Part shown: one piece after another, positions 3,635 through 26,217 of the stretch
Layout: the number at the start of each line of letters is the position of its first letter
Numbering within the stretch: the stretch's first letter is position 1
DNA from: Candidatus Aphodousia faecavium
GTDB lineage: Bacteria; Pseudomonadota; Gammaproteobacteria; Burkholderiales; Burkholderiaceae_F
Length of the DNA: 40,000 nt
Direction: 5' to 3'
NCBI GenBank assembly: GCA_018715245.1
Contig: DVLZ01000025.1
Location: 31,737-71,736, forward strand
Position numbers and translations under genes: made by a program
Notes under the pieces: model-generated
The model's input: the letters and a program-made list of their open reading frames with translations, nothing else
What the model was told of the DNA's origin: nothing
Database searches by the model: none

Positions 3635-4124
3635 TAAAATCCCCCGTGAAATCAGTGATCGGATGCGGATTGCGCATCAGCCACCGCGTTTTCATATTGA
3701 CCTGCCAATACGGATAATCATCAATGCCGGTGTTTTGCACCTCAATCGGCAGCTGTAGCACGTAGCGCCTGGCCAGCACACCGTTGGGTAGCGTTTTCAA
3801 CGCCAGCCGGATGCGAGAGGCTGCATTGAGGCCATCCTCGTGCGCTTTGATCGGATAGAGCTCTTTTCCCTCAGAATCCAAGCATTCGTCATAAGTACAA
3901 ATCGAAATTCGCACCTCAACCTCTGTTGTTTCCAAGTCGGCACTCGAGCTTTCAAAGGCAATCACCACGCACGGATAATCACTTTCACTGCGGTTGTTTG
4001 GAGGCAGAAAGCCGTTGATCACTGCTGGATGGACAAGTTCGCCTTTGGGGTTTTTCAGCACCACGTTTTTGAGCGCCTTTTCCACCTCATCTCGCAGCGC
4101 CTCGCAAAGCAAAACCTCAATCAT
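3615..4124 (-). CDS. Tail terminator / tail completion protein (lambda gpU position)
   Basis: A 169-aa ORF overlaps the gpZ-like gene by 4 nt. The call rests on position (FII-like, Z-like, then this gene, then sheath). Confidence 0.5.
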   Translation of the reverse strand: MIEVLLCEALRDEVEKALKNVVLKNPKGELVHPAVINGFLPPNNRSESDYPCVVIAFESSSADLETTEVEVRISICTYDECLDSEGKELYPIKAHEDGLNAASRIRLALKTLPNGVLARRYVLQLPIEVQNTGIDDYPYWQVNMKTRWLMRNPHPITDFTGDFNGVKKA

Positions 4125-4726
4125 TTGGATGCTCCTTTCAGCAGTTGCCGAGCCTCGTGATCCAAACGCTTTTGCATCACGTCCTGCATCTTTGCCTGCA
4201 CGCTTTGCACGGCCACCTCCTCAATCATTTGCGGCACAGCACGGTCGAACTTTTTCTCAATCGGAGCTCCCAGACGCTTGCGGCCATTTCGTCGATCCTG
4301 ATACACCCTTGTTCGCGGCGCATTTTCGTTTCGCTCGAAAATATGACCTTTCCACTTGAAGCCTCGCTGCAGATCAAACGATTGACCTTTTTTCACCGTC
4401 ACACGCACCGGTTTGCGATTGCCGCCGGTTGTGCTGGCATCTGTCGGCGTATGCTTAAACGCTCTTAACGGCAGGCTGCGCCCTTTCGAGCTCAATTCAC
4501 CGGAAAGATTGGTAAGCGTTGCCTTGCGCTCTTTCACAGTCTCGCCAATCGCATCAGATCGCACAGTAAAGGCCTTTCTCACGTCGCGTGAGATCTGGGT
4601 CTTACCGGAACTCAAAGCGCGATTAACGGCCCGCATAGTGGCTTTCTCGATGCCTTTCGGTACGCTGGAAAGCAGTTCTCTGAGGGACTTAAGCCTTGTC
4701 TCATCAGCTTGGAGCTTGATCTTCAT
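4121..4726 (-). CDS. Minor tail / tail completion protein, lambda gpZ-like
   Basis: The 201-aa product contains ..ATMRAVNRALSSGKTQISRDVRKAFTVRSDAIGETVKERKATLTNLSGELSSKGRSLPLRAFK... This parallels lambda Z (..AMAINRVASSAISQSASQVARETKVRRKLVKERARLKRATVKN..GDLPVIKLG) as I recall it. Confidence 0.6.
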   Translation of the reverse strand: MKIKLQADETRLKSLRELLSSVPKGIEKATMRAVNRALSSGKTQISRDVRKAFTVRSDAIGETVKERKATLTNLSGELSSKGRSLPLRAFKHTPTDASTTGGNRKPVRVTVKKGQSFDLQRGFKWKGHIFERNENAPRTRVYQDRRNGRKRLGAPIEKKFDRAVPQMIEEVAVQSVQAKMQDVMQKRLDHEARQLLKGASK

Positions 4727-5037
4727 GACCTACGCTCCTCTGCGACGATGACAATCATTCCATCTTCAATGCCAGCACTTACCACCAAGTGCACACTGCC
4801 ATCAATTCGGATTGATCCGGTTGCCTTCGGCACTTCCATATCCTTCTCGCTCACGTAAAGCGTGACCGTGTTGGAATAGACACCCAATGCCTTTGCCAAA
4901 CTCGGATCTGAGTTGATGTTTTTATCCAGCACGCACAAGATCTCTTTGCCGTCAATGTTGTGTTTTTCCGCAAACTCATCCGGATTGAGAAAAATCCGTT
5001 TGACATCCGCAGCCACCATGTCTTTGAAGTAGCTCAT
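4723..5037 (-). CDS. Head-tail joining protein (lambda FII position)
   Basis: A 104-aa ORF lies directly after the capsid gene and overlaps the next gene by 4 nt. The call is based on position and size. Confidence 0.5.
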   Translation of the reverse strand: MSYFKDMVAADVKRIFLNPDEFAEKHNIDGKEILCVLDKNINSDPSLAKALGVYSNTVTLYVSEKDMEVPKATGSIRIDGSVHLVVSAGIEDGMIVIVAEERRS

Positions 5038-5081
5038 GAGATCTCCGTTTGAAGGGACCTTGCGGCCCCTTCGCTCATGGA

Positions 5082-6968
5082 TTAAGCCAAAACGGCGTCA
5101 TTGAAAATACAGAAGCTTTCCGGATGACGCACGGCCACATCAAGCGACTGCAGCGCGCGGATCTCCACGCCGCCATTGTCATAGGCCGTTGCAGAGAACG
5201 GATTGGGCAAGAGCTCAACCACGCCCCATTCGCCGATCACGATGTCAGACCAGTTGCCGAACACAAGTTCAGAGCAGGTCTTTTGGCTAGGCGACTCACC
5301 AACAGTGATGTTGGAGCGAAGCTGATTGCTGCGAGCAACCGGATAGCCATTGACTTCGCCGGGTGTACCGTTGGCAAATCCCTTGTCGATCGACTTCCAG
5401 AGATACTGGCCGTTGTCATCCTTGAGTTTCTTGAGCGCTCCGATGGTGCGGGCGTTGCACATGTAAGCCATGGCATCGCCGACCACATTGGCTGCCGCAA
5501 CCTGGGTTTCCATGTCGATCAAGAGATCAAAGCTCAGATCCGTGCCGGTCGTGCCGCCTACCTTACCGACATTGGTCTGGTTGAAAATGCCCTTAGGTTG
5601 ACCGTTGCTGCCGGTGCCGATCAAGCACGCAGAATCCACGCCCAAAGCAATTGAAGTGATCAACTCATTGCGTACAAAGAGCTCCACATCCAAAGAGGCC
5701 TGCTTGAGCATATTGCGGGAAATGAAAGACTTTGCCGCAACCGTCTTCATGGACAAAGGAACCTTGTCGAAAGTCGCATTGGTGCCTGTCACCGTACCGG
5801 TTTCCGAAATCCAAGAAACCGTGGAAACGCCGCTTTGGCGCGGGATCTCAACATTGCCGACAAGGCCTGTCAAAAGCGTGGCACCCAAGCGCATCACCAT
5901 GGCTCGAGCTCGCAACGCTTCGATAAAGGAACCAGTCAAAAGCTGCGTAGCAATCAAATTTCCGCCCTGGGTTGCAGGACTTGCAAAGTAGCCAGGCGTA
6001 GGATCGTCACGGCGACCCAACGTGATGTTGGTCGGCATAAAAAAGCCTGCGGTATCGCGCTGCATACGGCGGGCCAATTCCTGGGACACTTCGCGCTCGA
6101 ATCCGGCCTGACGCCAATCGTTCGTCAAAGCCGCATTTAAAGCGCGCACCAGACTGTAACGGCTGCGTTCGGTTTCGCTCAGACCAATGTCAAAGTCATT
6201 GTGTGCACGGCTCGAATCACCGGTGGGATTGGCGCTACGGCCACGAATCGTTTCCATAACCATGGCTCGAGCCTCATCGATCGAGTGCCCTTCATTGATC
6301 AGCTTCTGGCGCTGCTCGAGAGGCACGTTGAAATCACGGCACATCGTTTCGATTGCCTGGATGCGCTCACGTTCGGCTTTGCGCTCGGCACTGCGCACTT
6401 TTTCGACATCAATATCTGCGGGCTTGGGATCTCCGGCCGCCCCATTCTTGCCGGGCTGTTGACTCGTCGTCATTGCTTTTTCTCCTTCATTAGGATCACT
6501 CAAACTCCGGTAAACACCCACCGACGTGTCGGCCGGCACAGTTACCAGGGAGACTTCATAAATTTCCCAGTCTTTTGCTAAAAACTTCGTGCCATCCCTC
6601 GACTGGTCAAAGGCATAGACGCGATAACCGCACGAGACATTGACCAGAATGCGGTCCTTCACGAGCTCAAAAGCCCGCTGCGCCTCGTCAGTTTTTGCAA
6701 ATCGAACCGTTGCATAGGTTCGGTGCTCATCCTGCTCGAGCCGCTCAACCACACCCAAAAGCTTGTCTCGATCGTGGTTAAACAAAAGCGACATCGACTG
6801 CTGCCGCTCACCGTTGCGCATAGCCCCAATGTCGTGGCTAAGCGTTTCAGTCCCATATCCGACATCCACCGGCGTATCAGAGGCCACCGGAAAACGCACT
6901 GTGCGGCTTTCCTCATTGACCTCCGACTCAGCGACCGCCAGCGATCGGAATCTAAGTTCTTTGGGCAT
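5082..6968 (-). CDS. Prohead protease (HK97 gp4/S78-type) fused to a scaffold-like linker and an HK97-fold major capsid protein
   Basis: The product is 628 aa. The N-terminal ~165 aa resemble an S78 prohead protease (..SLLFNHDRDKLLGVVE..VSCGYRV..EVSLVTVPADTSVG). The middle is a charged helical stretch (DVEKVRSAERKAERERIQAIE..). The C-terminal ~330 aa match the HK97 capsid family pattern (..LLTGSFIEALRARAMVMRLGATLLTGLVGNVEIPRQSG..). Confidence 0.85.
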   Translation of the reverse strand: MPKELRFRSLAVAESEVNEESRTVRFPVASDTPVDVGYGTETLSHDIGAMRNGERQQSMSLLFNHDRDKLLGVVERLEQDEHRTYATVRFAKTDEAQRAFELVKDRILVNVSCGYRVYAFDQSRDGTKFLAKDWEIYEVSLVTVPADTSVGVYRSLSDPNEGEKAMTTSQQPGKNGAAGDPKPADIDVEKVRSAERKAERERIQAIETMCRDFNVPLEQRQKLINEGHSIDEARAMVMETIRGRSANPTGDSSRAHNDFDIGLSETERSRYSLVRALNAALTNDWRQAGFEREVSQELARRMQRDTAGFFMPTNITLGRRDDPTPGYFASPATQGGNLIATQLLTGSFIEALRARAMVMRLGATLLTGLVGNVEIPRQSGVSTVSWISETGTVTGTNATFDKVPLSMKTVAAKSFISRNMLKQASLDVELFVRNELITSIALGVDSACLIGTGSNGQPKGIFNQTNVGKVGGTTGTDLSFDLLIDMETQVAAANVVGDAMAYMCNARTIGALKKLKDDNGQYLWKSIDKGFANGTPGEVNGYPVARSNQLRSNITVGESPSQKTCSELVFGNWSDIVIGEWGVVELLPNPFSATAYDNGGVEIRALQSLDVAVRHPESFCIFNDAVLA

Positions 6969-6993
6969 CTTTTCCCCCTAATAAAAAACCGGC

Positions 6994-13069: not shown

Positions 13070-13414
13070 TTAGTTGCCCATTTTTTCATCATATCTAATA
13101 GCAAACTCCTTTTCTGCTTCGAAAATCTTTCGATAGATGGTTCTACGATTTAATATCATTTTCTCAGCTACTTGATCCAGATCTCCACCGGGCGTCTCGC
13201 AGTAAACCATTCTGATGATTTCCTGATGCTCATTTTCGAGTTCTCTGACCACCTGATCAACTAAGAGCGAATCTTCATCAATTTTGACTCCGGCATCTTT
13301 ACCGGAACCGGATCCCCCACCGACCTGGGAGAGCTGGATGCCTTTGATGTTTCCGCGGCCTTCGAGCCAGGCTGCCCAGCGTTGCAATTTTTGGCGTACC
13401 CACTTCAATCTCAT
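13070..13414 (-). CDS. Late-gene antiterminator, Q-like (small QuuD/phage-82-type family)
   Basis: The product is 114 aa. KLQRWAAWLEGRG parallels the LERWGAWAANN of small Q proteins as I recall them. The C-terminal part (IIRMVYCE....LDQVAEKMILNRRTIYRKIFEAEKEF) fits the same family pattern. The gene is immediately followed by a promoter plus terminator unit. Confidence 0.65.
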   Translation of the reverse strand: MRLKWVRQKLQRWAAWLEGRGNIKGIQLSQVGGGSGSGKDAGVKIDEDSLLVDQVVRELENEHQEIIRMVYCETPGGDLDQVAEKMILNRRTIYRKIFEAEKEFAIRYDEKMGN

Positions 13415-13436: not shown

Positions 13437-13726
13437 TGTGCATAGTGTGTGCAGGGGGTGTGTAGGGTTTGTGCAGGGTCTTAATTCCCTTAACCGTTTG
13501 TTTTTAAAAGAGAAAAAGAAAACTGTGCATAGTGTGCAGGGTTTTGCGTTAAAAAACATTCGTATGCGCGCGTACCTGCGCGCGCGGGTATGCGTGCGCA
13601 TACGTGCGCGCCTGCGTAAACCCTGCACACCCTGCACACACTATCGTAACCAGTTGTTTTCATTGAATTTTCTCCACTTTCAAACCCTGCACAAACCATG
13701 CACAAACCCTGCACAGACCCTGCACA
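13437..13726. repeat. Dyad-symmetric iteron array (12 copies of TGTGCAGGG / CCCTGCACA) around AT-rich blocks and an alternating GC core; probable phage replication origin
   Basis: The left outer set starts at 13437, 13448, 13459 and 13470 (TGTGCATAG, TGTGCAGGG, TGTGTAGGG, TGTGCAGGG), in 11-bp phase. The left inner pair is at 13524 and 13533. The right inner pair (CCCTGCACA) is at 13621 and 13630. The right outer set is at 13685, 13696 (CCATGCACA), 13707 and 13718, also in 11-bp phase. Both pairings centre on about 13581. The core at 13561-13617 is cgtatgcgcgcgtacctgcgcgcgcgggtatgcgtgcgcatacgtgcgcgcctgcgt. Confidence 0.6.
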
Positions 13727-13748: not shown

Positions 13749-16235
13749 TTAACCTCCATAGCTGTGGTACTGCTGCCGGTTCTGCAGCATTTTCAACTGA
13801 AACGCCCGCACGCTGTCGGCCACTTCATTGGCATCCATCTGCTTTTCAACCGGGAAATAGACCGTCAGCATTCTCTTTTCCGTCACCAGACCGGTGACGA
13901 CCTTATCCGGGCCGTAATACTCGTTTTCTGGGTACAGATCGACCCGCCGGCGTTCGCTGCGCATCTTGCGGCCTAAGGCCGTCAGGAAAGCCGTCTGCGT
14001 CACCGGCCGCTCGTTGGTCTTTTTGCGCCACAAGTCATAGGCCGCATACAGATGAATGCCGGCCACGGGCCCGACGGGATAATCAAGCGATTCGCTCAGC
14101 CAATCATCCAGGAAACGGGCATCAGAGGCTTTGCCAAGCGATTTAAGCGCCTGGTGAGCCTCTGTCTCAAGCACAGGCGTATCCGGCCCGAAATCCCCCA
14201 GATCGATGTGCAGCAGCCAGTCGTAAAACCCCTCAACGCCGCCGGCATCGACTTGCTCGGCCAAGTTTTTGAAGTACGTCTGATCGTGCTTGATGTCGTT
14301 GTAGATGACCATAAAGCGTCGATCGTACTCATCGAGCACAAGCGGCTGCAGCTCGTTTGAGAGAAACACGAAGTTTGTGAGATTCACCTCTTCGCGCGAA
14401 TTGACGTACTTGCTTACCACCTGGTGATACTTGCCCGTGATCCACGTTTTGATGAGGTTTTTCTGCTTTCGGCGCTCGGCCGATGACACGATTTCCTCAC
14501 CGAGAATGAAGAGCTTCTGGCTCTGCCACGTGGTGTACTTGTCATCCATGATGTCCTGGTTGATCGTTCCCCCGTAGCGCCCGTAGATCTCGCGCATGAC
14601 CACTTCAAACATGAAGCTTTTGCCGGTGCCCTCTTTGGCCCCATGCACCAGGAGAGCCTGGTGCATTTTCGCCCCGGGGTGCTGCAGGGGATACGCCAAC
14701 CACTTGGCCACCCACCAAAACACGTCGTCATCACGACCGCAAAGATCGAAAAGATTCTCAATGATGAGATCGCACGCCTTGCTGCTGTCAGGCTTCAGAG
14801 GCCAGCCGTCAAACATGTTGATGCAGCCCTCCGGCACGTTTCGCCCGGGCTCAAAGAGCAGCTGATCCTTCATGATCACGCGCCTGGCCGGGTTCTTTTT
14901 CCAGTTCTTAAACGTTTCATCGTCATAGCGATCTTTCAACGGCTGCGCGCCCACGAGCTCACGCAGCTCCGTGTCCCAATAGCCAACCGGATAGACATAC
15001 ACAAGGTGCTCATTCATGCGCCGGATGCGCTGATCCATGAAGCCCGGCGCTTTCTCGGCCGCCTCGCGCGAAGCCAATGGCTTAAGGTCATCGGCCTTGA
15101 GCTGTTCGGCCGCAACCTCAAGGCCTTCGGCCTGGGCGAGGTCATTGAAGTCGCTGCCGGTCGAATCCTTTGCTTTGAACTGAGGAAACACCACGCAGCA
15201 ACGGTGTTTGCGTGCGGCCTCCATGGCCTTGCTCTTGCCCGCATTGACAAAGGAGAGCTTTTTCGTGACCTTGCGCCCCTTTTCGACGTATCGGGCATAA
15301 CCAAAGACACCCAGCACGCCATCCGTGAGACGCTTAAAGCACTTATAGGCCACCTCGCCCTTTTCAGGATGCGTAAAGGTCTCCTCCGGATCTTTAGCGC
15401 TTGATGTTACAACCGGCGTCACGCCAAAGGTCTTTTCAAAAAATTCCTTGGCGCGCTTGACGCAAAAGTGATCATCGTCGCCGGCAATCACCACCTTGGC
15501 CTGATCGTACTTTTTGCGCACGGTCGCGGTCACGCTGTCCAGATTGCCGGCATTGAAGGCCACCACCACGGGCGCTCCCGTAGCTTCATGCACGGAGCAC
15601 CCGGTGGCATAGCCCTCCACCACGTAGATGAGGTCCGGGCGCGAGTCGAAATCTCCAATTTTCATGTACGCGCCGGCAATTTGGCTGCCGAGCATGAACG
15701 TTTTATCCCGCCCATCCTCATCTTTGACCGGAGAGATCGTCTGCAGGCCAACAAGCTGGCCGGCTCTGAACATCGGCACCAAAAGCTGATCATTGAGCTG
15801 CCTGGCACCGTAGGGCTTGATCCCCTTGCGTGTCAAGTAGCCCTGCTTGCCGTCAACATCGTGGCCCATTTTCCAAAGCCTCGAGGCGCGCGCGGCGGCT
15901 TCGGCGGCCATGGCCTGGCGGTCTTTTTCAAACTGCTCGGCCGCTTTCTTGGCAAATTCCTTTGCCTCGGCCTTTTCCTCGGCGGTAAAAGTTTCCTTGC
16001 CAGGCTTGATGAGGTAGCTCTCGGTGCGGATCCCGAAGCTGCCGGAGTAAAACACGCGGCCCTTGAGCGTGCGGTTTTCATAGATCCTGTACCAAGCGCT
16101 CTTTTTCTTGGATCTCTGGCCATCCGGACGAAACCGGTCGTAACCTGGTGCGGTCACGTGCAGTTGATGGCGCTCAGGGACAAAGATCCCCACTTCGGCC
16201 ATTTGCCGGGCAATGTCGTCAAAACTAGAAGCCAT
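13749..16235 (-). CDS. Bifunctional primase-helicase (Toprim primase + D5/P4-alpha-type SF3 NTPase)
   Basis: The product is 828 aa. The Toprim motifs are VVEGYATGCSVHEATGAPVVVAFNAGNL and VVIAGDDDH. The SF3 Walker A is LLVHGAKEGTGKSFMFEVV and the Walker B-like motif is KLFILGEE. The architecture matches phage/plasmid P4-family primases. Confidence 0.85.
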   Translation of the reverse strand: MASSFDDIARQMAEVGIFVPERHQLHVTAPGYDRFRPDGQRSKKKSAWYRIYENRTLKGRVFYSGSFGIRTESYLIKPGKETFTAEEKAEAKEFAKKAAEQFEKDRQAMAAEAAARASRLWKMGHDVDGKQGYLTRKGIKPYGARQLNDQLLVPMFRAGQLVGLQTISPVKDEDGRDKTFMLGSQIAGAYMKIGDFDSRPDLIYVVEGYATGCSVHEATGAPVVVAFNAGNLDSVTATVRKKYDQAKVVIAGDDDHFCVKRAKEFFEKTFGVTPVVTSSAKDPEETFTHPEKGEVAYKCFKRLTDGVLGVFGYARYVEKGRKVTKKLSFVNAGKSKAMEAARKHRCCVVFPQFKAKDSTGSDFNDLAQAEGLEVAAEQLKADDLKPLASREAAEKAPGFMDQRIRRMNEHLVYVYPVGYWDTELRELVGAQPLKDRYDDETFKNWKKNPARRVIMKDQLLFEPGRNVPEGCINMFDGWPLKPDSSKACDLIIENLFDLCGRDDDVFWWVAKWLAYPLQHPGAKMHQALLVHGAKEGTGKSFMFEVVMREIYGRYGGTINQDIMDDKYTTWQSQKLFILGEEIVSSAERRKQKNLIKTWITGKYHQVVSKYVNSREEVNLTNFVFLSNELQPLVLDEYDRRFMVIYNDIKHDQTYFKNLAEQVDAGGVEGFYDWLLHIDLGDFGPDTPVLETEAHQALKSLGKASDARFLDDWLSESLDYPVGPVAGIHLYAAYDLWRKKTNERPVTQTAFLTALGRKMRSERRRVDLYPENEYYGPDKVVTGLVTEKRMLTVYFPVEKQMDANEVADSVRAFQLKMLQNRQQYHSYGG

Positions 16236-17526
16236 GATCCGCCTCCCGGTTCAAACGACGAAACACCGCGTCAGAGATCTGACGCACCATTGAGAGATCA
16301 AAGGCGTTTTTCTTGCCTTCAATCCGCTCGATGAGCTCCTCTTCAGTCAGCACCATCGTGCGTGAAGTCAGGCGCACGGCCGTCACTGAATCGCCTTCAA
16401 TCGTCACCAACGCCTTGCGGGCAAAGCTGTCGCTCGTTCTCGCCACAAAGTCCAGCTGGCGATCTCGCTCAGCCTGATCCTTGATGTCAAACTCCATCAA
16501 ATACGCCCGAGTGTGCTTGAGATCTCTGACGCCTTTCCAACCGGCCACCATGACCGTGAAAACGTCTCGGCCAATCAGGTAGCCCGGCTCATTCCACTGC
16601 GGCCAGCTGATGATCTTGTCTGATCCGTCATCAACACCGATGCCCAAGGCAGCAGCGGCCTTTTGAGCGGCTTCTGCCACAGCCTCGGGCGTCTTGCCGT
16701 AATAAAACGCCACATCCTGCGTCGTGGTCATGGCCGTGTTGTCCTCGATGCGGACAATGGGGCGCGCGAGCTCATTGAGCACCACCTCCTGCGGATGATC
16801 CACGTAGTCATAACGGCGAATGTTCTCCAGAAGCGGATCAAAACGCTTGCAAAAGCGCACCAGCTCCTCATTTTCACCGTAGTAGTCTCGGATGATGGCC
16901 ACAAGGCCCGGCTTGTCGATCGTGCAGTAGTGCTGCGTAACGGTTTTGCCATCCACCGTCCGGGAGCGCGTCTTAAGCTCAAAGCGCCGGAGCATGTAGG
17001 GATGCTCGCGCACGTACTCCGAGACGTTTTCCATAAACTCTTTGTGATTGATCCCGAAGTAGTCGCAAACCGTGAAGCTCTCCACATCCACGCGCGTGCC
17101 GTAGAGATTGATTTCGACTGCAGGCCTTTCTACCCCAAGCAAAGGCTTCGCAGACGCGCGAAGGGTTGAGGCCTCGAGCTTATTGAAGGCGTCAATGTAG
17201 GACCACTTGAAAGCTTGAGCTTTGGCCCCGGTGAAGCCCATGGCCAGAAACGTGAAGCCGTCGCGTGTGAGGCGATAGGCTTTTGACTTGATTTTGGTGC
17301 CAGGTTGCAGAGGGCTTTCGCGCTCGACTTCTGTCTCCGCAAAATTGTGGAGACAGGCTTTAGGTGCCGTTTTAATGATGTTTTCGATAGCTCTCAACAC
17401 CATGTCGTGCCGCTTGTCAAAGTAGGCCGCAACATCAGTTGAAAGCGTTGTGGGAATGTCGTCAACGAGTGTGACAACAGGCGCAGAGGGTTCAAAAACA
17501 CTCTGGGATTGATTCTTTGCCGTCAT
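16225..17526 (-). CDS. Rha-family phage regulatory protein with repeated Rha/BRO-like modules
   Basis: The product is 433 aa from ATG 17526, with AGGAG 8 nt upstream. The N-terminal module is TLSTDVAAYFDKRHDMVLRAIENI...YRLTRDGFTFLAMGFTGAKAQAFKWSYIDAF. A related module recurs at TTTQDVAFYYGKTPEAV...YLIGRDVFTVMVAGWKGVRDLKHTRAYLMEF. A weaker one lies in the middle (FTVCDYFGINHKEFMENV...). The gene overlaps the primase start by 11 nt. Confidence 0.7.
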   Translation of the reverse strand: MTAKNQSQSVFEPSAPVVTLVDDIPTTLSTDVAAYFDKRHDMVLRAIENIIKTAPKACLHNFAETEVERESPLQPGTKIKSKAYRLTRDGFTFLAMGFTGAKAQAFKWSYIDAFNKLEASTLRASAKPLLGVERPAVEINLYGTRVDVESFTVCDYFGINHKEFMENVSEYVREHPYMLRRFELKTRSRTVDGKTVTQHYCTIDKPGLVAIIRDYYGENEELVRFCKRFDPLLENIRRYDYVDHPQEVVLNELARPIVRIEDNTAMTTTQDVAFYYGKTPEAVAEAAQKAAAALGIGVDDGSDKIISWPQWNEPGYLIGRDVFTVMVAGWKGVRDLKHTRAYLMEFDIKDQAERDRQLDFVARTSDSFARKALVTIEGDSVTAVRLTSRTMVLTEEELIERIEGKKNAFDLSMVRQISDAVFRRLNREADHGF

Positions 17527-17815
17527 AGCAAAACTCCTGTGACAAGTTTTGAACACCTGAGCCCCCGACCAAGAGGGCGAGCAGGGGTCTGCGGGTTGGT
17601 CGACCGTGTCACAGGATACGGCACGCCTTTCGGCGTCCCACAGCCCCCGCCCATAAGATAGACGGCGCTTACGCGCAAAGAAAAACCGCACAAACTTGCA
17701 GTAAGGCGGCGCGCGCCTGTGAACATCGGGCGACCAAACCCGATCTGCTTTTTATTTGCAGACGAAATGATTATGCGGCAAACGCCGAGAGAATGCAAGC
17801 TGCGCGCGGGCATGG

Positions 17816-18070
17816 TCAGGCTCCCCGGGCGCTCACGACCGTCACGGAAACCCCCTCGGCCGATCGACAAGTTGATGCGCTGCGCATCAGAAAGATCTCC
17901 GGATGGCGCACGACCACGCTGCCGGGCACGTAACCGCGCCTGACCCAGTTCTGCACACACTGCTGCGTCACAGACAGCTGCCGAGCAAAGGCAATTTGAC
18001 TTCCCAGGCGCTCAATTTCACTCATCATGAGCTTGTAGGCGGCCACTTCAACAGGAGAGGGCGTTTTCAT
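17816..18070 (-). CDS. Cro/YdaS-like HTH repressor of the lytic side
   Basis: The product is 84 aa from ATG 18070. It contains GSQIAFARQLSVTQQCVQNWVRRGYVP, an HTH of the Cro/YdaS type. It is divergent from the cI-like gene. The 26 upstream codons in the track ORF run into the operator region. Confidence 0.65.
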   Translation of the reverse strand: MKTPSPVEVAAYKLMMSEIERLGSQIAFARQLSVTQQCVQNWVRRGYVPGSVVVRHPEIFLMRSASTCRSAEGVSVTVVSARGA

Positions 18071-18102
18071 ATAAATTTTGTTGATCGTTAAAATTGGATT
18101 CC

Positions 18103-18158
18103 GTGTATTATTTTCCGAAATATACACTTCCTCGAAGGCAAAAGCCAACCGAAGGCAA
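18103..18158. promoter_or_regulatory. Candidate operators in the cI/cro divergent region
   Basis: An inverted repeat GTGTAT-N13-ATACAC lies at 18103-18127. A direct repeat CGAAGGCAA lies at 18133-18141 and 18150-18158. Both are inside the 125-bp gap between the two divergent repressor genes. Confidence 0.4.
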
Positions 18159-18195: not shown

Positions 18196-18816
18196 ATGAC
18201 CCGCATGACTAATACCACTAGCATCATTGATCGGCTCCTAAAGCTTGCGGATAGCAAGGGCATCACGCAAAAGCAGCTCGCAAAGAGCATCGGAGTCAAT
18301 CCTCAAACCATCACAAACTGGAAAGCCCGATCGGACGGGAAAGCAACATCAATCCCGGCAGATAAGCTTGCACTCTGCGCCCAGCTCCTAGGCTGCTCGG
18401 CCGACTATCTACTGGGACTGACCACGCTGCAAAACATCAACGTGCCCATTCAGGCCATCACCATCCGCACCGACGGCCAAATCCTCGGCAAAGAGGATCC
18501 CAACAAGGTCGCGGGCATTTTGATTTCCACGCATTATTTTTCGGCCAAAGCCTTTGGCTACATTGTCCAAGACGAGAGCTCAACACCAACATTTAAGCCC
18601 GGCGACGAAATCATTGTTGATCCGGACATCCCTCCGGTGCCGGGCTCGCATGTGCTCGCCATCGTGGATGGCGCGGTTTACCTCAGAAAGTTCCGCAGCC
18701 CCCGCATCAGCAAGATCTCGCTTTTTGCCATCAACCTCGACTACCCCAGCTTTGAGGAACCGGAAAACCAAATCACCATCCTCGGCACCGTTGTCGAACA
18801 CCGTAACCACCAGTAA
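18196..18816 (+). CDS. CI-type prophage repressor (XRE HTH + S24 LexA-like autopeptidase domain)
   Basis: The product is 206 aa. The HTH is ITQKQLAKSIGVNPQTITNWKAR. The C-terminal S24-like part has ..GYIVQDESSTPTFKPGDEIIVDP...HVLAIVDGAVYLRKF, which carries Ser and Lys candidates. Confidence 0.85.
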   Translation: MTRMTNTTSIIDRLLKLADSKGITQKQLAKSIGVNPQTITNWKARSDGKATSIPADKLALCAQLLGCSADYLLGLTTLQNINVPIQAITIRTDGQILGKEDPNKVAGILISTHYFSAKAFGYIVQDESSTPTFKPGDEIIVDPDIPPVPGSHVLAIVDGAVYLRKFRSPRISKISLFAINLDYPSFEEPENQITILGTVVEHRNHQ

Positions 18817-22203: not shown

Positions 22204-24084
22204 TTATTTACTCGCCTCAAATCGTAGCAACGATGCCGAATGAATAATCACCAATACGGACCCTGCATTGTGTACGAGCGCTCCCACTACCGGTCCCATC
22301 CAGCCTCCCATAGCCAAGACAATGGCTACAAAATTAATCGTCATCGCCAATGTCAGGTTAATCTTGATGACCTTCATCATTTTCCGTGACAATCTGATTA
22401 GCATTGGGATGCCTTCGATGCGGTCACTCACAGCCACAATATCGGCCGCTTCTACGGCAATTCCGCTACCGATTCCTCCCATTGCAATTCCAACATGGGC
22501 ACACTTGAGAGCCGGTGCGTCATTAATTCCGTCGCCGACTATCAATAGTTTATGATTTTGGCGGTCTTCATTTTTTACGTAGGCCAACTTTGTTTCAGGC
22601 AAACATCCGGCAATTACTTTCTTAATACCGACAGTCTGCGCAACGTGTTGGGCTGCCGATTCTTTATCTCCGGTGAGAAGAATCGGTTCTGTGCCTAAAG
22701 AATTCAATTTTGAGACAACCTCTCCGGCAAACGGCCTGATTTTGTCTTCCAGAGCCAGAAAGCCAACTATTTGAGAATCTAACAGTACATACGAAATACT
22801 TTGACCGTGACGCGAAGCCTCTTCGGCTTGCTTGATCATCTCTTTCTCTTGTGGATCAAACGATCGATTTTCGTTGACCAGTTTCAGACTTCCGACTTCT
22901 ACGAGCCGATTCTGTATGATCGCTTTAACTCCCAAACCCGGTAACATCTCAAAACCGATCGGTTCAAAAAGCTTGCCTGCATCTGCCTGACTGTTATAAC
23001 TTTTGATAATTGCCTTTCCTAGCGGATGTTCGCTGAGCTTTTCCACAGAAGCCGCCAACGTGTAAACCTCTTTTGCTGTGAAACCTTTTTTCGCTACCAC
23101 CTGTACCACAACCGGTTTGCCTTCTGTGAGGGTTCCTGTCTTATCAAACGCAGTTTTTCTCACCTCTGCCAATCGCTCAAGTGCATCACCGGCTCTGACT
23201 AAAAAGCCCTTACGCGTGGCGTTTCCGATTGCCGCCATCACGGCTGTCGGCGTCGCCAGCACCAATGCACATGGACAAAAGACCACCAAAATTGTCACTG
23301 CTCGAACAACTTCATCGGTTATATACCAAGTTATCGCTGCTGAAGTTAACGCAGCTACGACAACCCAAGTTGCCCACTGATCGGCCAGGCGAACAATTTT
23401 CGTTTTATTGGCATCTGCACTTTCGACCAAGGCAATGAGACGATTGACCGAACTCTCCTTACCTACTTTGGTCGCACGCATTTCAAAAGCCCCGAAGCGG
23501 TTAATCGTTCCGCTCATGACCTCATCTCCGACTCCTTTATCTACGGGCATCGGTTCTCCCGTCATCACCGATTCATCGATTGCCGTTGTCCCTTTGATAA
23601 CCACTCCATCAGTCGGCACTTTTTCCCCAGGCAAAACCTCAAGAACATCATCGACCAAAACCTCATCGGCTGGTATTATCATTGTTTTTGACTGTCGTCT
23701 AACTCGAGTCGTTTCAGGAGAAAGTTTGACTAACTCCGCGATACCGGCACGGGCTTTTTCAACGGTTAATTCTTCAAGAAATGAACCGATGGTCATAATC
23801 CAGGCAATTTCACCTGCTGCAAAAGTCTCACCAATAATGACAGAGGCGATTAATGCCATTGAAACCAATACGTCGGCTTTTATATCAAAGCGGCTCACCA
23901 GCCCTTCTATGGCCTCTTTGATAATGGGAATTCCACACAAAACAATACTTACCCAAGCCGGATCAACAGGGCAGGATCCTTCGGGCAAAAAGAAACTGAC
24001 ACCCAGGGCCAGTCCGGAAATAATCAGAAAAACAATTGTTCGTCTTTCTTCGCCATTGACCCATTCGGGCACACGCCAATTCAT
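22204..24084 (-). CDS. Heavy-metal P1B-type ATPase (CPC motif, no N-terminal metal-binding domain)
   Basis: The motifs present are FCPCALVLATP, FDKTGTLT, LLTGD and VGDGINDAPALK. There is no CxxC HMA domain. The last TM region reads VGALVHNAGSVLVIIHSAS. The start is probably ATG 24084, with GGAGAG 4-5 nt upstream. The track start at 24096 has no SD. Confidence 0.85.
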   Translation of the reverse strand: MNWRVPEWVNGEERRTIVFLIISGLALGVSFFLPEGSCPVDPAWVSIVLCGIPIIKEAIEGLVSRFDIKADVLVSMALIASVIIGETFAAGEIAWIMTIGSFLEELTVEKARAGIAELVKLSPETTRVRRQSKTMIIPADEVLVDDVLEVLPGEKVPTDGVVIKGTTAIDESVMTGEPMPVDKGVGDEVMSGTINRFGAFEMRATKVGKESSVNRLIALVESADANKTKIVRLADQWATWVVVAALTSAAITWYITDEVVRAVTILVVFCPCALVLATPTAVMAAIGNATRKGFLVRAGDALERLAEVRKTAFDKTGTLTEGKPVVVQVVAKKGFTAKEVYTLAASVEKLSEHPLGKAIIKSYNSQADAGKLFEPIGFEMLPGLGVKAIIQNRLVEVGSLKLVNENRSFDPQEKEMIKQAEEASRHGQSISYVLLDSQIVGFLALEDKIRPFAGEVVSKLNSLGTEPILLTGDKESAAQHVAQTVGIKKVIAGCLPETKLAYVKNEDRQNHKLLIVGDGINDAPALKCAHVGIAMGGIGSGIAVEAADIVAVSDRIEGIPMLIRLSRKMMKVIKINLTLAMTINFVAIVLAMGGWMGPVVGALVHNAGSVLVIIHSASLLRFEASK

Positions 24085-24101
24085 AACACTCTCCATTTTT
24101 A

Positions 24102-24474: not shown

Positions 24475-26217
24475 TTAAGTATAACTAACCGTTTCAGTTT
24501 CAGAATCTTTCTTTGTTTTGCCGAGCCAAAGAGAAATTTGTTCAAATGCTTTCCTGACCGCTATCGGCAACATATTGTCAACAGACTGGTTATAGGGGTT
24601 TTGAGCAATAATTTCTCCCAAGAATCCAGAATATTCTGCTTTCTTTTTCTCAAGTTTGCGTTTTAGATCCCTCGGGGCCAACGCCATCATGCGCTCGTAC
24701 TGAAGGTGCTTGGATTTGGGCGAAGTGTTTGTTGAACCGTTACAGGCCCAAAGTGCATCGTAAATTTCGCGATTAAGTCCTGTCTTGTAAACCAACTCGC
24801 CTTCGATTGCCAAACCGGGAGAGAGGAAAAACACTCCGCTTTGATTGTCCTGTGCTCGGCTGTGAACCCTTCTTTCCGTGTCACTTAATTGTTTCAGGAC
24901 CACATGTCGGGCATCTCCGTCATTATCACTGATCACACAAAACGGCTTTTTAAGACTGAGCGCCAACATTAGAAACGGTGCATAACTTTTACCGTCCACC
25001 CCGATGATGCTGATCCCATAGGTGCTGGGATCTTCTCCAAAATAAGCCTGAAACATCCCTCGTATGAGTTGCTCTTCGGTAACCCCTTCCACAAAAATCA
25101 GACCCGTAGCAAAGAGTACTTCGGCTCTGAAACGCAAAATAAGCCGTTTAATGACCCGAGTTTCCATAGGATCAATATTTTGAGGTAACCACCGTACCCG
25201 AATGTCTTCACCAACCCGCAACATGCTGCGAAACTCATGAGGCTCAGATACTGAGGCTACGTACGGTGAATGGGTGGAAACTACACATTGGTGAGATAGC
25301 GATTTGAGACGAGTCATCAGTGCGCGTTGAGCGTTAGGGTGCAAATGAATTTCCGGTTCCTCTGCAGCAATCAGCATAAAAAGCGGCTTCTGAGATAACT
25401 GTGCATGCTTTGCCAACAAATCCACTAAAACAACAATAGACAGAATGGCGACGCTTTTTTGACTGCCCTTACCCTGAAGGACCGAAAACGGAATGATTTT
25501 CTCGGAGTCACTTTTTACTAAAGAGAAGAACGCTTCAATATTATCAGCCGTCAATGCGACTCCCTGAGGCAAGCCGGTTCCAGGTCCTTCTAGTGTTTGA
25601 CTCAAAGAGTCCAACATCGCCTTTAAGTCCTCAATCGGCTTAACTCCATAATCAGGGTGTTTTTTCAGTACAGTACTTAACTCATTGACCGTCAGACTGA
25701 CAAACGATTTTTCATTTTTAAGATCTTCTCTGAGGTTTTCCTCAGCATCAATACTCACAAACTGAATAGCATGGGGTAGCACATCGATAGCCTCTCCGAG
25801 CCGGGCGGCATCCCAATGCAGTATCTCATAGCGTGCTTTTGTGATTACCCCATTGTCATGGCGAGTAAACACTGTCCTGAAAGCCATGTATTCGCGTCGA
25901 TAATGGTCCCTGCGAATTAAACCCGCAAACTCTTTTTGCCACCGATCAGGAAACATCGACAAACGATTCGATTGCGGGTTAATCGGCACAAAACGCACAT
26001 CGACCCATAATTCTTTGGCAAAGGTGCCGACAGCATCCATGTGAAAATCTTCTTTCTGAACGGAAGTTTCATCACTCAAAGCCAATTCAAGCGCTTTTAA
26101 AACCGTGCTTTTGCCACAATTATTCGCACCAAGCAAAACCGTTGTGCGACCCAAGGGCATCTGCAAAGTGCGGATGCTTCTGAAGCCGTTAATGCGTATG
26201 CGATCGATAACAATCAT
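24475..26217 (-). CDS. OLD-family nuclease (ABC-type ATPase + C-terminal Toprim), single-gene / GajA-like architecture
   Basis: The product is 580 aa. The ATPase motifs are Walker A GANNCGKST, signature-like GKGSQKS, Walker B LFMLIAAEEPEIHLHP and H-loop STHSP. The Toprim motifs are FVEGVTEE and CVISDNDGD. Confidence 0.85.
   Translation of the reverse strand: MIVIDRIRINGFRSIRTLQMPLGRTTVLLGANNCGKSTVLKALELALSDETSVQKEDFHMDAVGTFAKELWVDVRFVPINPQSNRLSMFPDRWQKEFAGLIRRDHYRREYMAFRTVFTRHDNGVITKARYEILHWDAARLGEAIDVLPHAIQFVSIDAEENLREDLKNEKSFVSLTVNELSTVLKKHPDYGVKPIEDLKAMLDSLSQTLEGPGTGLPQGVALTADNIEAFFSLVKSDSEKIIPFSVLQGKGSQKSVAILSIVVLVDLLAKHAQLSQKPLFMLIAAEEPEIHLHPNAQRALMTRLKSLSHQCVVSTHSPYVASVSEPHEFRSMLRVGEDIRVRWLPQNIDPMETRVIKRLILRFRAEVLFATGLIFVEGVTEEQLIRGMFQAYFGEDPSTYGISIIGVDGKSYAPFLMLALSLKKPFCVISDNDGDARHVVLKQLSDTERRVHSRAQDNQSGVFFLSPGLAIEGELVYKTGLNREIYDALWACNGSTNTSPKSKHLQYERMMALAPRDLKRKLEKKKAEYSGFLGEIIAQNPYNQSVDNMLPIAVRKAFEQISLWLGKTKKDSETETVSYT

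Follow-up and report, generated by a model that had tools for sequence, protein, structure and literature searches.

The lambda origin consists of repeats inside gene O that are bound by the O protein, with DnaB loaded by P. In the core origins of simian virus 40 (SV40) and the papillomaviruses, inverted initiator sites lead to head-to-head double hexamers of a helicase with its own origin-binding domain, with an AT tract and an easily distorted palindrome next to these sites. In Staphylococcus aureus pathogenicity islands (SaPIs, such as SaPI1 and SaPI5), the origin lies directly downstream of rep and comprises 6-12 repeats that flank an AT-rich centre, with two or more on each side and the two sides oppositely oriented. 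A self-loading helicase reads them through its C-terminal winged helix, and one hexamer has been proposed per side (PMC9371898). The phage-inducible chromosomal islands (PICIs) of Gram-negative bacteria have the same organisation (PMC6092414, PMC10111431), and a pri-ori fragment of EcCICFT073 drives plasmid replication (PMC6092414). According to the GenBank annotation of P4 (NC_001609), crr lies 46 bp downstream of the alpha gene, at a distance of 4.5 kb from ori. Here we analysed an array of short repeats (iterons) in a 40,000-nucleotide stretch of contig DVLZ01000025.1 (hereafter, the window), which lies between the primase-helicase gene and a small Q-like gene in a lambdoid prophage carried by an uncultured species of Sutterella. 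From sequence comparisons, the array is very probably the vegetative replication origin of this prophage, of the pri-rep-ori type, and would be recognised by the adjoining P4-alpha-like primase-helicase.

Results

Twelve iterons form an inverted dyad

The anatomy of the array was read from the sequence between 13300 and 13860 and from the output of a repeat finder. Twelve 9-mers of the TGTGCAGGG type occupy 290 bp (13437-13726), six on the + strand and six on the - strand (Table 1). They are arranged as two outer sets (4+4) with a spacing of 11 bp and two inner pairs (2+2) with a spacing of 9 bp, in which the copies abut. The dyad axis lies at 13581.5 for the outer sets and at 13581 for the inner sets, and the repeat finder reports the arms as a 48-nt inverted repeat. 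Seven copies match TGTGCAGGG perfectly; three deviate from it at one position, and the copies at 13437 and 13524 at two. A first-pass annotation of this DNA had listed mirrored repeats at these coordinates, and both of our readings agree with it base for base. Its statement that the element fills the space between the two genes is also correct: the gap from the primase-helicase stop (13749) to the Q-like gene start (13414) measures 334 bp, and the nearest repeat is 22 bp past the primase-helicase stop codon.

Repeat counts vary with the mismatch threshold. When one mismatch was allowed, 10 of the 18 matches in the 40-kb window fell inside the 290-bp array, where ~0.07 would be expected by chance; shuffled sequences averaged 9.1 matches per 40 kb, and 18 was not reached in any of 100 shuffles. 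This concentration of matches, compared with the shuffle mean, excludes a chance origin of the array.

Table 1 Features of the array and genes of the surrounding prophage, in window coordinates.
Feature	Position	Strand	Remarks
Outer iteron set, primase side	13685..13726	-	Four copies 11 bp apart (TGTGCAGGG on the - strand); 13685, 13707 and 13718 read CCCTGCACA, 13696 reads CCATGCACA
AT-rich spacer, outer-inner	13639..13684		46 bp; holds the second least stable 20-mer (13654-13673)
Inner iteron pair, primase side	13621..13638	-	Two abutting 9-bp copies, 13621 and 13630, both reading CCCTGCACA
GC-rich alternating purine-pyrimidine core	13561..13620		Seven CGCGCG/GCGCGC hexamers
Short central AT-rich patch	13542..13560		ttttgcgttaaaaaacatt
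Inner iteron pair, Q-gene side	13524..13541	+	Abutting copies, 13524 (TGTGCATAG) and 13533 (TGTGCAGGG)
AT-rich spacer	13479..13523		45 bp; least stable 20-mer at 13503-13522; purine tract TTAAAAGAGAAAAAGAAAA, its first 14 nt identical to the tract ahead of the inner iteron pair in a P4 crr unit
Outer iteron set, Q-gene side	13437..13478	+	Copies 13437 (TGTGCATAG), 13448 (TGTGCAGGG), 13459 (TGTGTAGGG) and 13470 (TGTGCAGGG), 11 bp apart
Primase-helicase gene	13749..16235	-	828 aa; Pfam, PHROG
Small Q-like gene	13070-13414
Rha-family gene	16225-17691	-
Cro/YdaS-like gene	17816-18148
CI-like repressor gene	18196-18816	+

The array accompanies the primase-helicase gene

We searched viral contigs for the motif of two neighbouring repeats (CCCTGCACANNCCCTGCACA) and obtained 31 loci. 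All of them contain a cluster of 6-14 copies within 400 bp, arranged in most cases as a dyad, and a homologue of the window protein adjoins the cluster in 26 (tblastn, 28-38% identity). Two further loci have a helicase with D5_N, DUF5906 and Pox_D5 in the position of the primase-helicase, which brings the total to 28/31; of the remaining three, two are cut by contig ends and one, L009, has a different context. In the loci where both gene and array were mapped, the array starts as a rule no more than ~60 bp from the stop codon, and ~240 bp from it in L010 and L021. Among species-representative genomes, real arrays were found only in prophages of Sutterella, Moraxella and Marinobacter, always together with a homologue, and the other genome matches were single chance matches. 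Across these very divergent phages, the array travels with the primase-helicase gene and only with that gene, which supports the first-pass assignment of a phage origin beside a P4-alpha-like primase-helicase.

The other neighbours vary. The 31 viral loci contain no homologue of the Q-like or the Rha protein of the window, both of which recur only in the near-identical Sutterella copies described below. The gene downstream of the array is Q-like in L007, and in L010 it is an unknown gene followed by HNH and terminase genes. Because they do not co-occur with the array in the related viral loci, Rha and Q are rejected as binding partners, and the earlier suggestion that the Rha-family protein might bind the repeats is not plausible. 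At the nucleotide level, the region had no match in GenBank phages or in complete E. coli genomes, and a protein-pattern scan of viral contigs using the window protein was likewise negative; the DNA repeat pattern succeeded.

Three observations were made in passing. In L009 (IMGVR_UViG_3300042691_023293, 5878-6035), six copies of TGTGCAGGG, five on one strand and one on the other, lie inside a 199-aa open reading frame (ORF) beside an SNF2/ResIII helicase and a VRR-NUC nuclease, without a DUF5906 primase-helicase, so that the repeat stands there in a different replication-module context. Two Streptomyces genomes (L073 and L099) carry 7-11 one-strand copies of the same 9-mer without a primase-helicase homologue, probably an unrelated tandem repeat. 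In L010, the gene of the gpA-type large terminase (3949-6972) contains an intein-like insertion with LAGLIDADG and Hom_end domains.

The layout is retained with other repeats

Distant homologues of the protein are followed by arrays of the same design built from other 8-9-mers. The repeats of these relatives can be quite different (GGATATAGT, GCAAGGGTG, TCAGACAG, TGTGCGGG), with the layout kept, usually as 6+6, and most of them retain a CGCGCG-type box between the inner sets. In L110, whose protein is 39% identical to that of the window, copies of GGATATRGT follow an identical 4 (11 bp)-2 (9 bp)-centre-2-4 layout. The repeat is GGTGTGAAS in L109 (44% identity), GCAAGGGTG in triplets in L111 (30% identity), TCAGACAG in Halomonas phage H4907, TGTGYYGGG in Stutzerimonas phage PG1 and TGTGCGGG in Stenotrophomonas phage S1. 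The modal count is six per arm: 10 of 24 non-redundant elements are exactly 6+6, and most others are off by one. In the same 24 elements, spacings between repeats of the same orientation are 9 bp (75 cases), 11 bp (45), 12 bp (22) and 10 bp (8). The inner sets are mostly separated by 55-109 bp, and by 77-79 bp in the window. This recurrence of the layout, with other repeats and downstream of other homologues, is further support for the assignment as a phage origin.

Public records and gene callers place short hypothetical proteins over several arrays: L032 (Stenotrophomonas phage S1, NC_011589) 2454-2804, L033 4373-4489, L034 4817-4936, L037 5492-5746, L108 4011-4352 and L111 3945-4226. The annotated gene gp2 of phage S1 consists entirely of the 6+6 array of TGTGCGGG, and such gene calls look like annotation artefacts.

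Profile comparison relates the primase-helicase to P4 alpha

The protein matches Toprim_3 (1e-09) and DUF5906 (3e-15) in Pfam and the DNA primase family 2249 in PHROG (1e-100), and its relatives also carry Pox_D5 or D5_N. The alignment of the family profile with P4 alpha by hhalign had a probability of 99.7 and an E value of 6e-27, and paired family columns 13-735 with alpha residues 19-738, covering the primase, the helicase and part of the C-terminal region; BLASTP against alpha aligned the Toprim region only, with 33% identity. By profile comparison, the family is remotely homologous to P4 alpha, in keeping with the label P4-alpha-like in the first-pass annotation. In a sequence search of the PDB, the sole match was the helicase core of the NrS-1 primase-polymerase. 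Given this match, the Pfam match and the co-occurrence of Pox_D5 or D5_N in relatives, we read DUF5906 as a superfamily 3 (SF3)-type helicase core, the class of T antigen and E1.

AlphaFold2 models of residues 641-828 and 688-800 (predicted local distance difference test scores of 85-86) have a winged-helix-like topology of three helices, a long beta hairpin and a terminal helix. The weak top Foldseek matches were the winged-helix domains of ORC1/Cdc6, RFX and RTP, and the origin-binding domain of P4 alpha was absent among the matches of the two models; the winged-helix assignment of the modelled C-terminal domain is unproven. A single alignment column, an Arg at the predicted wing start, tracks the repeat class. 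This Arg is present in 20/20 aligned proteins with TGTGC(A)GGG downstream, including those of the very divergent L003 and L028 and of phage S1. Of the six aligned proteins that have other repeats, L035, L109, L110, L111 and P4 lack it, and L033 (TCAGACAG) has it. In the window protein, candidates for this position are the wing Arg residues in the stretch 760-764 (SERRR). In addition, the C-terminal regions of L111 and L076 are 60% identical, with near-identical helices, and differ mainly in the wing; the two loci also differ in the repeat. This covariation of wing and repeat, uncorrected for phylogeny, is suggestive.

The most stable duplex lies at the centre of the array

Duplex stability was calculated by a nearest-neighbour scan of 20-mers across the window (mean, -27.2 kcal/mol; 1st percentile, -33.2; 99th percentile, -21.3). 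The least stable 20-mers, 13503-13522 (-20.3 kcal/mol) and 13654-13673 (-21.7 kcal/mol), lie beyond and just inside the 99th percentile of the window, respectively. Both belong to the spacers between outer and inner sets, not to the centre, and they confirm the AT-rich blocks noted in the first-pass annotation. The most stable 20-mer of the element, 13566-13585 (-36.7 kcal/mol), is in the core, beyond the 1st percentile of the window. This core (13561-13617) had been described as 57 bp of alternating purine-pyrimidine DNA; it is indeed GC-rich and mostly alternating, but the alternation is imperfect, with perfect runs of 15, 10 and 24 nt and phase breaks between them. Single-strand folding of the centre was no better than that of shuffled sequences (z values of -0.9 and +0.5), indicating no special hairpin.

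CGCGCG/GCGCGC hexamers are strongly concentrated in the elements relative to their own flanks, with 7 vs 0.24 per 400 nt in the window, 4 vs 0 in L110, 5 vs 0.11 in L076 and 6 vs 0.16 in L015. Most lineages have perfect purine-pyrimidine runs of 18-28 nt just inward of the primase-side inner set, and the far inner set is often adjoined by a shorter box, with an AT-rich patch between the two boxes; an AT-rich patch beside the GC box is found in the centre of many relatives. CGCGCG is present in 28 of 50 half-centres, and the composite CGCGCG(R)GA(R)AAA, with a T tract after it, is common to several repeat classes. The GC box was not found in the AT-rich Moraxella elements, and L003 and L028 have an AT-type alternating run in its place. 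Since the box persists across repeat classes and is missing in Moraxella, its conservation is independent of repeat specificity but not universal. The window is the extreme case, with a box grown to ~57 bp and only 19 bp left of the central AT patch. The alternating GC core can still be called unusual, as it was in the first-pass annotation, and a core of this kind is kept in most lineages.

Prophage context

The prophage is lambdoid and lies on the - strand (Table 1). Beyond the Q-like gene follow a SieB-like gene and the small and large (gpA-type) terminase genes. Host genes start near 21-22 kb. Near-identical prophages are present in two uncultured Sutterella genomes (99.8% identity of the primase-helicase), ENA and Logan assemblies also contain a gene for the identical primase-helicase, and the prophage is carried in the public runs ERR14370149 and SRR24987774. 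No - strand terminator is predicted inside the array, so early transcription presumably runs through it.

Just past the Q-like gene, in the - strand segment 12953-13058, a promoter-like site (13058-13030) is followed by a strong intrinsic terminator (12984-12953), and the two together resemble the lambda PR'/tR' late-control unit; weak, sub-threshold Rfam matches (isrK and STnc350) overlap this segment. The Rha-family ORF in Table 1 is a mechanical one, with 488 aa and a GTG start, compared with 432-433 aa given by gene callers on identical contigs; it overlaps an upstream ORF (17523-17960), and its true start is probably near 17526. Past the prophage end, a 580-aa GajA-like OLD-family ATPase-TOPRIM protein is encoded at 24475-26217 on the - strand (PADLOC GajA, 7e-114); no GajB-like helicase was seen beside it, and the downstream gene encodes a P-type ATPase.

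Discussion

The array is best explained as a replication origin because of its gene association, its recurring layout, the homology of the adjoining protein to P4 alpha, and the precedent of the SaPIs and PICIs. As in their pri-rep-ori modules, the array stands immediately downstream of the primase-helicase gene, in the window and in most related loci, and its 6+6 repeats form two opposite sets around a central region, the layout of the validated SaPI and Gram-negative PICI origins (PMC9371898, PMC6092414). Inverted arms are the rule in origins of this kind, and the mirror-image arrangement is therefore not the peculiarity for which it had first been taken. The comparison with these islands is one of layout. 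Unlike these islands, the window carries a full lambdoid prophage and not a satellite, its repeats measure 9 bp vs 5-6 bp, and its arms are two-tiered, with outer sites phased at ~11 bp, abutting inner sites and AT-rich spacers of ~45 bp between them.

P4 resembles the window in its repeats of both orientations just after the primase-helicase gene and in its initiator, alpha. The purine tract TTAAAAGAGAAAAA, identical over 14 nt and then followed by two repeats, is present at 13506-13541 of the window and in a P4 crr unit (L107 4494-4530), although the repeats differ; this may reflect common ancestry or common function. The L109 repeats (GGTGTGAAC) resemble those of P4 (GGTGAACA), whereas the window repeat TGTGCAGGG is unlike the P4 type-1 repeats (TGTTCACC). 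Furthermore, the P4 crr consists of two direct 120-bp units and the window array is an inverted dyad, and neither P4 ori nor crr contains a CGCGCG box. The element has neither the AT-rich centre of the SaPI and PICI origins nor the bipartite ori and crr with TGTTCACC of P4, and we suggest that it would work like a pri-rep-ori origin while belonging to the lineage of alpha homologues.

Similarities to more distant origins are architectural. With SV40 and the papillomaviruses, the element would share its general architecture and the SF3-type helicase class; there, distortable elements lie on either side of central binding sites, whereas in the window the repeats, six per arm, flank the centre. 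Like the lambda origin, the array has repeats beside AT-rich DNA in a lambdoid early operon. A lambda-type origin was nevertheless rejected, as the array is intergenic and inverted, its putative initiator has its own helicase and primase, and no O or P homologues were found among the window genes.

Several observations weigh against an origin at this site. In place of the AT-rich centre of the SaPI and PICI origins, the window has a very stable, alternating GC-rich box, and its centre of 77-79 bp is 58% GC, with an AT-rich part of only 19 bp. Foldseek gave no significant match for the two C-terminal models (E > 0.6). The overall identity of the C-terminal regions does not sort by repeat class, and the predicted recognition helix varies between proteins with the same repeat. 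Finally, P4 is the only member of the alpha family with a mapped origin, and there it is crr that stands next to the alpha gene, with ori elsewhere; in this detail the P4 parallel drawn in the first-pass annotation needs correction.

This last point is the basis of the only serious rival, a crr-like accessory site that the primase-helicase would bind to enhance or regulate replication in cis, with synthesis starting elsewhere. The shared purine tract with its two repeats mirrors the P4 crr unit, and the left end of the prophage is beyond the window. However, the 40-kb window contains the array as its single cluster, unlike P4 with its two separate sites, and no second cluster was found in the complete Mcat4 prophage, which has the same repeat. 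Moreover, in the SaPIs and the E. coli PICI, an array so placed is itself the origin (PMC9371898, PMC6092414). We consider an accessory role of this kind unlikely.

It is very unlikely that the array is purely a transcriptional control site, with operators for Rha, CI/Cro, Q or another protein gating read-through into the Q-like gene, even though it is situated between the primase-helicase and Q-like genes on the transcribed strand and an anti-terminator gene is also found downstream in three other relatives (L007, L111 and H4907). The array is present without a following Q gene in L010 and S1, and the window Rha and Q proteins are not shared by the related viral loci. Nor does the array contain a predicted terminator on that strand, and Q acts downstream of its own gene, with a promoter and terminator unit seen at 13058-12953.

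A plasmid-type centromere or a terminase recognition site (cosB/pac) is highly improbable. The R1 centromere parC has 11-bp repeats in two sets, which the 11-bp phasing of the outer sets resembles, and in L010 and S1 the array is close to the terminase genes. Yet no partition genes are nearby, the prophage is integrated with host genes flanking it, and Q, lysis or other genes intervene before the terminase genes in the window, L007, L033 and Mcat4; the constant neighbour is the primase-helicase, which in the window is accompanied by the Q-like gene. That the array has no function of its own, being a small protein-coding gene or a miniature inverted-repeat mobile element between two genes, is almost certainly wrong: ORFs of 89 and 98 aa span it, short hypothetical proteins are annotated over such arrays and the arms form an inverted repeat, but the spanning ORFs have no significant Pfam match (one faint, sub-threshold), are alike only via repeat-encoded residues and are thus not conserved as protein, and the position of the array is fixed relative to one gene while its repeats are lineage-specific, as would not be expected of an insertion element.

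Two other identities were tried and rejected. Rfam gave only sub-threshold microRNA-type matches in the core, which does not support an RNA gene. A telomere resolution site like that of N15 (telRL), a palindrome with a central alternating CG core, was considered because of the alternating CG core of the array. This core, however, does not form one single palindrome, the ORFs scanned include no protelomerase, and the 630-aa ORF at 22204-24096 encodes a P-type ATPase.

For the array as an origin, we propose the following course of initiation. Upon induction, the - strand early operon would express the 828-aa primase-helicase, whose C-terminal winged-helix-like domain would bind the 9-bp repeats. 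The six sites per arm would match the six DNA-binding domains of one hexamer, the four outer sites being about one helical turn apart on one face, and the two inner sites abutting. Because the two arms are inverted, two hexamers would be loaded head to head over the ~79-bp centre. The duplex may then open in AT-rich DNA, in the short central patch, in the two outer-inner spacers or in both, and the very stable alternating CGCGCG box may bound or position the opening; alternatively, the box itself may be a structural or recognition element. The Toprim primase of the protein would finally start bidirectional synthesis.

A more tentative idea, which we regard as rather doubtful, is that the alternating CGCGCG box is a functional origin element, kept regardless of repeat specificity, and not filler. 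It could act as a structure-prone switch, with a B-to-Z transition or junction under negative supercoiling, or it could be recognised, perhaps as a point of loading or priming, by some conserved part of the primase-helicase. If this were true, the functional box and the six repeats per arm would define an undescribed, Proteobacteria-wide class of origins for P4-alpha-like primase-helicases, in which opening would not start in a simple AT-rich centre. The presence of such a very stable, Z-DNA-prone and conserved box within a putative origin is so far unexplained.

The origin design of six repeats per arm with a stiff alternating-GC box is, judging from the loci compared, widespread. In the open-access text searched, we did not find it described, and full-text searches on the motif and on Z-DNA with iterons returned nothing relevant. 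The window element differs from the described cases in its two-tiered arrays, in the lack of a second crr-like site, and in having its most stable duplex, and not AT-rich DNA, at the centre. The array thus offers a concrete candidate origin for the primase-helicases of temperate phages of Sutterella (human gut), Moraxella, Marinobacter, Halomonas, Stutzerimonas and Stenotrophomonas, where public records label such origins as small hypothetical genes, and in prophage annotation it can serve as a marker of the replication module. With six sites per arm around a centre of ~80 bp, the array would offer a natural model of the counting and positioning of two self-loading hexamers on DNA, and the gene together with the array is a candidate minimal replicon for gut Betaproteobacteria, which are poorly accessible to genetics.

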